Source of the DNA: a virus
Length of the DNA stretch: 64,000 bases
Direction: 5' to 3' (one strand)
UHGV virus genome: UHGV-0164982
Positions 2,823 through 54,420 of the stretch are shown one piece after another (the first letter of the stretch is position 1; each line of letters begins with the position of its first letter). Under the pieces are notes generated by a model. That model was not told the DNA's origin and did no database searches. It saw only the letters and a program-made list of their open reading frames with translations. The position numbers were made by a program, and so were the translations under genes.

Positions 2823-3938
2823 TTATTCAGCCGCCACCGGTTTTAACAAGCCAGCATCGAGCAGTTTACGCGTCAACCACTGCTGGCCTTTACCCGTTAA
2901 TTGAGGCGTCAACCGTATCTGGTAGCCATCTTCATCATCCAGCACCACTTCTTTCACCGTGAAATACCCGGCGTTGATGTATTGCTGGAGCGGTACATTT
3001 TTACGCCCGCCGGACGCAATCAGGATGCCGTTCTCCCGTAACCAGGCAAACAGCGCGTTTTGCTTAAGTCCAACAACCTTTGCAAAATTCCCAATCAGGA
3101 TCCCTTTAGCTACTGATACCCGGTCGGCAAAATCGACTTTAGGAGCGGCGGCCACCAGCTGCTGATTTAGCTGGTGGGCTTTCTGTTCCAGAAGCTGCTT
3201 TTGTTCAGCCAGTTCGGCAGCCAGGCGCAGAGCTTCTGGAAGCGTCTGGGGGATTGCGATCGGTTGCTGTTCTTTTTGTCGGAAGTAGCTGTCTTCCAGT
3301 TTTTCAAAGAATGCCCATGCCTGATCGGTTTCGAGCATTTTAGCGTGACGGGCAGCTCCTCGTTCTGTCCAGAGGATGAGAGAGCGCGCTTTGGGGGAGA
3401 CTGGATTTTGTGAGTAGTTTAAAGCTACCCGCAAATTTTTCAGCTCATCGCCAATAACCTTGAAAAAGTGCTTCGCTTCAACAAAGCGTACTTTGTTCTC
3501 ATGATGATTCTGGCGAATGCGAATCGCTTCTGTACCATACCCCTTAGCAAGAGTTTCGGTTGTTACGACACGCACTCCCTGCCACTCCAGAACGGGAATT
3601 TCATCCGGCTGATTCTGAACAACCACCAGTTCCGATTCCTGAACTGAAGGTGCATAAATTTTTTCTGATTTAACGTTAGTTGCTTTCATTCTGTGTGCCT
3701 CCTTGCGTGCTTCGGCTGCGACGGTTGCGTAATTCAGATGACCCTGTTCGAGCAGGTATTCACGGATATCGGTTAGCAGAATGCGGTGAACCGCGTGTTT
3801 GTCCTTTCTCCGGTAAAGTTGTTTGGTGATCATGAAGTAGTTGGCAATAACGCCAGGTATATCCCTGGTACTGATACAGGCAGTGTGCTGTTCAATTGCC
3901 TCGATCATCTCTTCACGGGTGACTAATGACGTTCTCAT
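2823..3938 (-). CDS. antirepressor-like protein (KilA-C/ANT C-terminal domain), paralog of the ImmI Ant at 50835-51878
   Basis: 371 aa; C-terminal ~150 aa near-identical to ORF 50835-51878 (PQTLPEALRLAAELAEQK...GKGQQWLTRKLLDAGLLKPVA); N-terminus also alignable. Confidence 0.8.
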   Translation of the reverse strand: MRTSLVTREEMIEAIEQHTACISTRDIPGVIANYFMITKQLYRRKDKHAVHRILLTDIREYLLEQGHLNYATVAAEARKEAHRMKATNVKSEKIYAPSVQESELVVVQNQPDEIPVLEWQGVRVVTTETLAKGYGTEAIRIRQNHHENKVRFVEAKHFFKVIGDELKNLRVALNYSQNPVSPKARSLILWTERGAARHAKMLETDQAWAFFEKLEDSYFRQKEQQPIAIPQTLPEALRLAAELAEQKQLLEQKAHQLNQQLVAAAPKVDFADRVSVAKGILIGNFAKVVGLKQNALFAWLRENGILIASGGRKNVPLQQYINAGYFTVKEVVLDDEDGYQIRLTPQLTGKGQQWLTRKLLDAGLLKPVAAE

Positions 3939-52096: not shown

Positions 52097-52410
52097 AGTT
52101 ACGGCCTCACAATCAGGTTTAACAACCTGCTACCCGCTGTCAAACAGGTGGCAGGACGTGACAGGGTTGACAGACTGGCGATTGTGAAACCAGCAGGCCG
52201 AAGCCTCCCCATCACGCCCCACCATAATTTGGGCGTAACGCGGTTTAACGGACACAAAAATACCGCAATATCGGAAATCTGCGGTTGTCCGCACAATCAT
52301 TCAGGCTGTCAAACCTGGTCGCAGAATTTGCTACGACGGCGAAACTATAAGCCTGAACGATTAAAAGGTCAATATGATGCGAAAAGATAGCATTCGCGAC
52401 TTAAAAATAC
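52097..52410 (-). ncRNA. c4: ImmI leader, expected location of c4 antisense repressor RNA
   Basis: ORF-free leader between operator and icd; placement by analogy with P1 ImmI, RNA ends not determined. Confidence 0.4.
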
Positions 52411-52427
52411 AAATTTATTAGAGCAGG
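52411..52427 (-). promoter_or_regulatory. C1 operator-like site for ImmI
   Basis: AAATTTATTAGAGCAGG, 15/17. Confidence 0.65.
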
Positions 52428-52708
52428 CGAGTGTCGTGCAATAGATGTATTATTTGTGATGAAAAATAATGCAGAGGGATATTGTTACTTTAAGATGGAT
52501 ATCAATAGTCGATACATAAATTAAGTTAGCAATAAACTATTAACTTAAGAAATAATGCAGATGGTGAACTTATCTCTGACTTTTCAGCTATACACAATAA
52601 GTTAGGGATAGCTTATAAAAAGTTGATTATTTGATATAAGTCAATGGGAGTATTCTTGTTTACTTTCCGTTCTCGTGGTAACTTCTCGCCGGTTTTTGTT
52701 TTTCTGGG

Positions 52709-53230
52709 ATGATTCTTATGTCTAAAAAGTATACTTTATGCGCTCTTGTTGTATCTGCAATTCTTCTTTCTGGGTGTCAATCTAGCGGTGCTGATTATGC
52801 TGCCGATGTTTATGATACCGCTCAATTGAATTCGAAGCAGGAAACAAAGACAGTCAATATTATCTCTGTGCTTCCAGCTAAAGTGAAAGTTGATAATAAA
52901 GCTAATAAAGAAGCGGCACAGACATTTGGTGCGGTACTGGGAGCTGTTGCTGGGGGCGTTGCCGGTTATAATGTTAAAGGCACATCGACACTGGGTGCTG
53001 TAGCTGGCGGTACTGGTGGTGCGGCTCTTGGTGCAGCGGCTGGTTCTTTGGTTAGTGATAAAACAATTGTTGAAGGTGTTTCACTGACTTATAAAGAAGG
53101 AACTAAGGTGTTCACTTCAACTCAAGTTGGTAAAGCATGCCAGTTTACAACGGGGCTTGCTGTGCTTATTTCAACTAAAGATAATGAAACTCGAATTCAG
53201 CCAAATGCTACTTGTCCAGAAAAGAAATAA
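52709..53230 (+). CDS. glycine-zipper lipoprotein (AT-rich cargo)
   Basis: Lipobox LLSGC; Gly-rich GAVLGAVAGGVAGY and GAVAGGTGGAALGAAAG segments. Confidence 0.6.
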   Translation: MILMSKKYTLCALVVSAILLSGCQSSGADYAADVYDTAQLNSKQETKTVNIISVLPAKVKVDNKANKEAAQTFGAVLGAVAGGVAGYNVKGTSTLGAVAGGTGGAALGAAAGSLVSDKTIVEGVSLTYKEGTKVFTSTQVGKACQFTTGLAVLISTKDNETRIQPNATCPEKK

Positions 53231-53233
53231 TTT

Positions 53234-53773
53234 ATGAATAAAATTATTTTATTTCTAATCTTTTCTACGTTTAGTGTAGGCACTGCCTTGGCTAACTCGT
53301 TGCAAAGTCAAATTGCTGCTATTGCTCAGGCGGAAAATGAAGGGCGAGCTAAAGAGCAGCAAGCTGAGGATGCCAGAAAAGAACTTATTCGCCAACAAGC
53401 ACAAGCTGAACGTATTAGAAGAGAAAAAGCAGCATCTGCCGCTGCTGCACGCGAAAAACAGCGTGTTGCTGCAGAAAATGAACGTAGAGCGAAACGAGAA
53501 GCCGAGCTAGCAAATGACAAGAAGCGAGATCAAGCTTATGAGGATGAGCTTCGCAAGCTGCAACTCGAAAGCATGAAACTCGAACTGCAAGCAAAAGCGG
53601 CTCGTGTCCAGCGAGAAAACGATTTTATAGAGCAGGAGTTGAAGGAGAGAGCAGCTAAGACAGATGTAATTCAGTCTGAGGCTGATGCAAATAGAAATAT
53701 TTCTACAGGAAGTAAAGATTTACTGCAAAGCGAAGGAAAAGCTAGAGAGAAGAAAGCTAGCAGTTGGTGGTAG
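53234..53773 (+). CDS. secreted, highly charged coiled-coil protein (AT-rich cargo)
   Basis: Signal peptide MNKIILFLIFSTFSVGTALA; Ala/Glu/Arg/Lys-rich repeats. Confidence 0.55.
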   Translation: MNKIILFLIFSTFSVGTALANSLQSQIAAIAQAENEGRAKEQQAEDARKELIRQQAQAERIRREKAASAAAAREKQRVAAENERRAKREAELANDKKRDQAYEDELRKLQLESMKLELQAKAARVQRENDFIEQELKERAAKTDVIQSEADANRNISTGSKDLLQSEGKAREKKASSWW

Positions 53774-53829
53774 TAATCACTACGATTGCGAGCATACTAT
53801 CACAAATGACAACTCGTAGAATCTGTTAA

Positions 53830-54420
<591 letters not shown>

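Follow-up and report, generated by a model that had tools for sequence, protein, structure and literature searches.

The 64,000-nucleotide (nt) viral sequence UHGV-0164982, referred to here as the window, belongs to the P1 family of plasmid prophages (P7 type). Between its ImmI operon and a group of tail genes lies a two-gene cassette that encodes a lipoprotein and a secreted protein of the DUF5384 family. Our analysis revealed that this cassette is allelic cargo of P1-family plasmid prophages: it occupies the slot in which P1 holds its sim exclusion genes and carries a mobile-lineage copy of the Escherichia coli operon yfgH-yfgI. With slightly more belief than doubt, we read it as a module for lysogenic conversion, one that reinforces the lysogen's outer membrane or remodels it. 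The sequence and its likeness to an E. coli lipoprotein were already known, having been in GenBank since the entry for phage P7, where the pair is entered as Upf50.5/Upf50.0, "similar to putative outer membrane lipoprotein of E. coli". What is new here is the exact swap with sim, the obligate pairing of YfgH-like and DUF5384 genes, a selected mobile clade in several phage types, and the tie to YfgH function.

A previous sequence-only reading of this DNA had placed the gene pair where P1 carries sim, and the position proved to be exact. Homology to P1 (97-98%) runs up to position 52425, inside the operator Oc4, and resumes at 53802, at the late promoter LPsit, with nothing between. At these same junctions, a 1376-bp cassette in the window is swapped for a 1513-bp simA-simB-simC segment in P1. 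Is the pair nevertheless a version of simABC? The sequence-only reading had suspected that it was not, and had named identity to simABC as a result that would speak against its proposal. No such identity was found. The two cassettes are without a blastn match to each other, and BLASTP of SimC, the one Sim protein compared at the protein level, against either product of the pair returned only short chance segments (E at least 0.058). The two loci share the Oc4-LPsit slot, their orientation, signal peptides on all products, a low guanine-plus-cytosine (GC) content and the status of dispensable cargo. They differ in having no sequence similarity and in gene number (three genes in P1, one of them a remnant, versus two here), and the Sim proteins, unlike the products of the cassette, include no lipoprotein. 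The sim region is one of eight variable low-GC regions in a survey of P1-like phage-plasmids (PMC9603915).

Further alleles were found in the same slot. Phage Ro157c2YLVW carries, at identical junctions, a third, unrelated allele encoding two signal-peptide proteins of 215 and 158 amino acids (aa). SimA of P1 (52 aa; 3059-3217 of locus L003) is the truncated N terminus of this 215-aa protein (1421-2068 of locus L099), of which it retains the signal peptide and about 25 residues; the 215-aa form is intact in Ro157c2YLVW. SimB and SimC also have signal peptides. A P1-like IMG/VR contig (2744054872_000001, 6337-9035; L118 below) has a variant of our pair that is 84% and 80% identical, followed by a gene whose 419-aa product has a nuclease-like domain (DUF559/REase_MTES_1575). 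Each of the three other alleles found at the slot (SimA/B/C, the Ro157c2YLVW pair and the L118 pair) thus encodes Sec-exported proteins, and therefore every allele seen does so. The position behaves as a "slot for exported proteins".

Both products of the cassette are envelope proteins, as had been proposed, one with a lipobox and the other with a signal peptide. In the lipoprotein, the lipobox LLSGC is followed by QS. The predicted lipidation site, Cys20 (codon 52775-52777), is invariant in 41 homologs, and residue +2 is Gln and not Asp, a sorting signal by which the protein would be bound for the outer membrane. The glycine-zipper segments noted in the sequence-only reading correspond to two runs of the glycine/alanine zipper pattern (G/A/SxxxG/A/S) at residues 67-83 and 90-113, and the two glycine-zipper helices are flanked by strands in the AlphaFold2 (AF2) model. 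The protein is 69% identical to E. coli K-12 YfgH over 167 residues (E 5e-73). Among proteins of known structure, its sole sequence relative in the PDB is SlyB (7ojf; phmmer E 6.4e-5, full length), and a Foldseek search of the PDB with a query model of low confidence gave the same protein as its sole significant match (7ojf_A, E 3.9e-6, TM score 0.51/0.59, 139 columns). All family-invariant residues are retained, including C20, C141 and C166, which suggests that Cys141 and Cys166 may form a periplasmic disulfide. Membership in the YfgH family is secure.

Other family assignments for the lipoprotein were considered and set aside. The match to the Pfam Gly-zipper 2TM family is below threshold. 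The Pfam TraT family (PF05818) matches at 23.1 bits (E 6.9e-5; cut-off 31) over the helical hairpin only; with this sub-threshold score, and with no TraT chain among 75 Foldseek PDB matches, we rejected membership in TraT. NCBIfam returned nothing above threshold for the pair, and in PADLOC-DB neither protein gave a match with an E of 0.1 or below. The label "DNA methyltransferase" attached to the matching PHROGs family (phrog_1277) was taken as an annotation error. The same erroneous name is given to the YfgH-like lipoprotein in RefSeq records NC_050152, NC_042128, NC_031129 and NC_019445, and the phi456 record labels the pair "minor tail protein" and "tail tip protein", also in error.

The second protein begins with a signal peptide (53234-53293) that ends in ALA followed by NS, an AxA cleavage site. 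It is predicted as one uninterrupted helix over residues 3-178 (mean predicted local distance difference test score [pLDDT], 88), and its mature part of ~159 residues would form a rod ~23 nm long at 1.5 Å per residue. The sequence-only reading had described it as made almost entirely of charged helical repeats. Charged it is (41% D/E/K/R in the mature protein), and helical as well; true sequence repeats are absent, Tandem Repeats Finder having reported only one weak 15-nt array. The protein matches Pfam PF17358 (DUF5384) at 147.8 bits (cut-off 25; E 3e-43) over profile positions 4-145 of 145 and is 47% identical to K-12 YfgI, which is likewise 179 aa long; the conserved part is the C-terminal half. 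Membership in the DUF5384/YfgI family is secure. Searching the PDB with the DUF5384 profile gave no match, and in the searchable literature we found no paper naming upf50.5, upf50.0, DUF5384 or PF17358.

Judged by its sequence, the pair is xenologous to yfgH-yfgI, a core operon of E. coli. The chromosomal operon is ~69% identical to it at the nucleotide level, and 5420 of the 5426 complete E. coli genomes contain it (sensitive blastn). Gene order, the short spacer (3 nt in the window) and protein sizes (170-173 versus 172 aa for the lipoprotein, 179 versus 179 aa for its partner) agree, as do the lipobox, the zipper helices, the cysteine pair and the C-terminal half of DUF5384, with protein identities of 69% and 47%. 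In contrast to the chromosomal operon, the phage pair lies on a plasmid prophage and not by guaA, is additional to the host copy, belongs to a distinct mobile clade with synonymous sites saturated relative to the chromosomal copy, and has its own leader with a private direct repeat. The association of the two genes extends far beyond E. coli. With one genome counted per species, and loci drawn from Gamma-, Beta- and Alphaproteobacteria, a YfgH-like gene stands directly upstream of the DUF5384 gene, on the same strand, at 79 of 80 loci, the sole exception being a contig of 336 bp. The YfgH-like gene and the DUF5384 gene are therefore obligate partners in one module.

The phage copy does not stem from a recent capture of the E. 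coli genes, because synonymous divergence (dS) between it and the chromosomal copies is saturated. At the species level, its nearest chromosomal relatives are no more than about 55-63% identical in the DUF5384 protein and up to 80% in the lipoprotein (Pantoea). Closer relatives are all carried by mobile DNA, and a neighbor-joining tree places them in a single clade, apart from the Escherichia chromosomal copies. The clade includes a copy flanked by an insertion sequence (IS) and AlpA (92-97% identity), an island with an integrase, IS elements and a GGDEF gene (78-90%), and myovirus prophages of E. coli and Salmonella, in which the pair adjoins a tail-fibre assembly gene at the prophage end and has its own near-consensus sigma-70 promoter (TTGACA-16-TATATT). 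Within the mobile clade, the ratio of nonsynonymous to synonymous divergence (dN/dS) is 0.07-0.12 for both genes, which indicates that the mobile lineage is under purifying selection. Separately, a second, divergent chromosomal yfgHI-like pair was seen in addition to the guaA-linked one in Escherichia sp. E1V33 (loci L022 and L047) and in E. coli ECMA0423 (L067); the lipoprotein match in L022 is partial only.

What is known of the host operon bears on the phage copy. According to a recent preprint (10.64898/2025.12.22.696046), YfgH fractionates with the outer membrane; its loss leads to sodium dodecyl sulfate/EDTA sensitivity and higher permeability, and its mild overexpression rescues depletion of BamA or LptD. 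Since mild overexpression is protective, an extra copy could plausibly have a gain-of-function effect. In the same preprint, YfgH co-purifies with BamA, LptD, OmpF/C/A, LamB and TonB-dependent receptors, SlyB-like rings of YfgH are an AlphaFold3 prediction, and YfgI is not mentioned (10.64898/2025.12.22.696046). Hypersensitivity to nalidixic acid has been recorded for a yfgI mutant (PMC3536626); as YfgI is secreted, this phenotype would fit a defect of the barrier better than one of DNA repair. SdiA and acyl-homoserine lactone induce srgIL, the orthologous counterpart of the operon in Salmonella Typhi (PMC11619404). The sequence-only reading had named, as another outcome that would refute its exclusion proposal, the lack of an exclusion phenotype together with homology to a host lipoprotein of known function. 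Of these two, the homology exists, to the yfgH-yfgI operon, and the reported role of YfgH is outer-membrane stabilisation and not exclusion. SlyB offers a structural comparison. Like the lipoprotein here, it is a lipoprotein of ~150 residues with a beta domain broken by a two-helix glycine-zipper hairpin (7ojf/7ojg); unlike it, SlyB is only about 25% identical, is regulated by PhoPQ and has no DUF5384 partner. Suppressors also separate the two proteins into different pathways, those of slyB mutants pointing to Mla and those of yfgH mutants to clsA (10.64898/2025.12.22.696046).

How might the module act in a lysogen? In the conversion reading, the lipoprotein would be exported, lipidated at Cys20 and, having Gln at +2, carried by Lol to the outer membrane. 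Its two glycine-zipper helices would insert as a hairpin, and protomers would form SlyB-like rings around patches of lipid and outer-membrane proteins (OMPs). The DUF5384 protein would be exported by Sec, cut after Ala20 and become a periplasmic helical rod, the conserved C-terminal half of which would cooperate with the periplasmic domain of the lipoprotein. Expressed from the prophage independently of host control, the module would supply an extra and divergent dose of both proteins, so that the outer membrane is reinforced or remodelled; as a side effect or a selected one, other phages might reach the surface less. Several points weigh against this proposal. The AF2 model of the lipoprotein is of low confidence (pLDDT 55.6). 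Joint action of the two proteins is assumed, as is expression of the cassette in the lysogen, and a consensus scan found no plus-strand sigma-70 promoter upstream of the pair. With chromosomal yfgHI already present in almost every host, any gain from a second copy is likewise an assumption. Finally, the slot is otherwise that of the sim exclusion genes, which would argue for a role directed at phages rather than at stress.

This last point leads to the reading that comes closest to ours, in which the pair is a functional replacement of Sim and mediates superinfection exclusion. Rings would mask or enclose outer-membrane receptors or patches of lipopolysaccharide (LPS), or the rod would obstruct transit of the tail tube or DNA, with P1-like or unrelated phages as the target. 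We regard this as possible but doubtful. Consistent with it, the cassette lies exactly in the sim slot, the other alleles there likewise encode signal-peptide proteins, and in other prophages the pair stands by tail-fibre genes, a typical site of exclusion morons. The co-purification of YfgH with OmpF/C/A, LamB, BamA, LptD and TonB-dependent receptors fits as well, several of these partners being phage receptors. Also in favour, protection against some phages is reported for TraT, which is a ring lipoprotein too (PMC12658005). The P1 receptor, on the other hand, is the LPS core and not an OMP, which counts against exclusion. Against exclusion stand also the lack of similarity to Sim, the lack of a PADLOC match, and the standing of the family as a core operon on the chromosomes of many proteobacteria, with a role there that is not exclusion. 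A more specific and somewhat more speculative version, to which we give a little less credence, is that a SlyB-family "nanodomain" lipoprotein and its rod have been domesticated by two or more kinds of temperate phage (P1/P7 plasmid prophages and myovirus prophages with P2-type tails) as an envelope exclusion device, in which rings corral receptors or stiffen the membrane and thereby keep arriving tails from engaging or penetrating. If true, this would be a mechanism not described so far, interchangeable with Sim at the same slot.

Three other explanations appear unlikely. The pair could be a host-interaction factor like TraT or Bor, giving lysogens resistance to serum and complement or conjugational surface exclusion. 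TraT of F plasmids is likewise a mobile-element outer-membrane lipoprotein with two transmembrane helices; it forms rings (predicted for the lipoprotein here) and has pleiotropic barrier effects, and the weak Pfam match over the two-helix region recurs in relatives of our lipoprotein. That match, however, stays under the family's gathering threshold of 31, Foldseek against the PDB gives SlyB only, the core fold of TraT is LptE-like with a beta-hairpin and finds no fold match here, and TraT is without a DUF5384 partner; we consider a TraT- or Bor-like role improbable. A neutral passenger, that is, host DNA acquired by chance with no selected function for the phage, seems to us slightly less probable again. 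The dispensability of the alternative allele sim for P1 growth (PMC10695390) and the presence of an IS inside the cassette in two plasmids would fit such a history, but the low dN/dS of both genes in the mobile clade, the retention of every family-invariant residue, the persistence of 80-84% identical variants in the same slot of another P1-like element and the independent acquisition of the pair by myovirus prophages all argue for selection. Least probable of all is an accessory role in lysis at the end of the lytic cycle, with the two proteins acting like spanins as an outer-membrane lipoprotein and a periplasm-spanning coiled coil. The superficial match in architecture (a lipoprotein plus a helical periplasmic protein of ~23 nm) and the position just upstream of a late operon bring it to mind. 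Yet the neighbours are ImmI and tail genes with no lysis cassette among them, no Lpa-type late-promoter motif was found upstream of the pair, the helical protein has a cleavable signal peptide and no membrane anchor, and the lipoprotein is a 150-residue SlyB-like protein instead of a short proline-rich o-spanin; moreover, outside phages the two genes exist as a conserved operon of the chromosome.

The conversion and exclusion readings would have different consequences. About one-third of P1-like phage-plasmids have the pair in place of sim, and in E. coli and Salmonella such elements commonly carry mcr-1 and extended-spectrum beta-lactamase genes. Were the pair to harden the outer membrane, lysogens could better tolerate bile, detergents, some antibiotics or serum. 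If it excludes phages, the host range of therapeutic phages and P1 transduction into such strains would be affected. For the host operon, the strict pairing of DUF5384 with YfgH would assign the uncharacterised YfgI to the YfgH pathway and suggests that studies of yfgH that ignore yfgI are incomplete. The diverged, plasmid-borne copy provides a natural handle with which to dissect the yfgHI module.

The cassette is that of phage P7. A 1.45-kb block of the window is 99% identical at the nucleotide level to P7 (AF503408), where the genes are annotated upf50.5 and upf50.0. The proteins are 100% identical and the flanks alike, which makes this the same locus, and the few substitutions that distinguish P7 from the window are in the leader only. 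The P7 annotation gives no function and puts signal cleavage of the lipoprotein at residue 31, not at the lipobox. We found the cassette in 11 phage records and 168 plasmid records. Among plasmid records, 509 bear pmgC and 298 have sim-type sequence; the cassette is present in ~33% of the 509 pmgC-bearing plasmids and in 164 of the 5426 complete E. coli genomes. In two plasmids of chicken E. coli, NZ_CP123268 (H25) and NZ_CP123261 (H26), the match is split in two by an IS5-family element, ISKpn26, inside the cassette. Phage TL-2011b (JQ011317; L098, 41360-42935) was considered as a third phage carrier and rejected: its record ends in the host genes yfgG-yfgH-yfgI, as the prophage is inserted between yfgI and guaA and the "viral" record takes in adjoining host sequence. 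Some 55 IMG/VR contigs (L124-L180) with a ~47%-identical DUF5384 match, mostly near the contig end, look like host flank too.

The coordinates of the cassette, its genes and the neighbouring elements are collected in Table 1.

Table 1. Features in and around the cassette (positions in the window)
Feature	Coordinates	Strand	Basis or remark
C4 RNA	52144-52229	-	Rfam
C4 a1b1 target	52298-52350	-	Rfam
C1 repressor operator Oc4 (Op51) of ImmI operon, CCTGCTCTAATAAATTT	52411-52427	-	P7 annotation; left cassette boundary
Allelic cassette, 1376 bp	52426-53801	+	blastn against P1 AF234172 and phages Ro157c2YLVW and 813R1: identical junctions
Partial inverted copy of repeat core, TGTATTATTT	52446-52455	+	weaker in P7: TATATTATTT
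Direct repeat copy 1, AAATAATGCAGAGGG	52464-52478	+	
Direct repeat copy 2, AAATAATGCAGATGG	52550-52564	+	
FNR-like palindrome, TTGATATAAGTCAA, one mismatch	52631-52644	.	candidate regulatory site only
10-mer TTTACTTTCC	52659-52668	+	common to chromosomal E. coli yfgH leader (L002 3857-3866)
ORF 1 (lipoprotein)	52718-53230, 170 aa; alternative ATG 52709, 173 aa	+	P7 upf50.5
Region coding two glycine-zipper helices (residues 61-85, 91-111)	52898-53050	+	AF2 secondary structure, zipper motifs
ORF 2 (secreted, DUF5384)	53234-53773, 179 aa	+	P7 upf50.0
Late promoter LPsit	53804-53822	+	P7 and P1 annotations; right boundary, outside cassette

The gene pair is divergent from ImmI, as had been noted previously: ant1/2, icd and the C4 antisense RNA are all on the minus strand. 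The block had also been described as strongly AT-rich. This applies to the 292-nt leader, which has a GC content of 0.322 (below the 1st percentile of the window), and does not apply to the open reading frames (ORFs; 0.42-0.44) or to the cassette as a whole (0.406; window, 0.473). The direct repeat reported in the leader is real. Its two 15-nt copies agree at 14 of 15 positions with a spacing of 86 nt, and the motif has exactly two matches in 64 kb, a number reached in none of 100 shuffles. Copy 1 is invariant in P7 and pPE15-92K, which is uninformative because copies of the cassette are only ~2% diverged. The repeat was found upstream of none of the related yfgHI-like pairs. Between the two variants known from the P1 slot (the window and L118), leader homology starts only at 52631; the 205-bp segment with both repeat copies is therefore private to this allele, and it occurs only ever with this cassette and nowhere else in E. 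coli.

Downstream of the private segment, the leader holds an FNR-like palindrome of the form TTGAT-N4-(A/G)TCAA, which overlaps an extended -10-like motif, TGnTATAAG (52632-52640). At the homologous place in L118, around 6300, there is a perfect FNR box, TTGATATACATCAA. The myovirus-prophage copies (L004 and L095) have an FNR-like palindrome with 1-2 mismatches upstream of the lipoprotein gene, centred ~61.5 nt before the predicted start of their sigma-70 promoter. FNR boxes were not enriched across the family (4 of 84 observed versus 1.65 expected; p about 0.1), and we treat the palindrome as a candidate site, a lead only, that may have a regulatory role. The 10-mer common to the phage and chromosomal leaders is at -59 in the former and at -69 in Escherichia chromosomes, a match of modest significance. 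In K-12 it fits a TTTACT-17-TTAAAT promoter, the -10 element of which is not conserved in the phage.

Beyond the known C4 elements, an Rfam scan gave nothing above threshold. One match, to the Salmonella small RNA isrK, was below threshold (52256-52337, minus strand; 43 bits, with a gathering score of 50) and overlaps the region of ImmI that holds the c4 a1b1 target. On the other side of the cassette, LPsit is followed by the tail genes pmgC/tubA, tub, pmgB and sit. There, in the part shared with P1, a hairpin with a perfect 15-bp stem (53813-53847; CTCGTAGAATCTGTT...AACTAGATTCTACGAG; z-score, -5.15) overlaps the -10 element of LPsit just 5' of pmgC/tubA.

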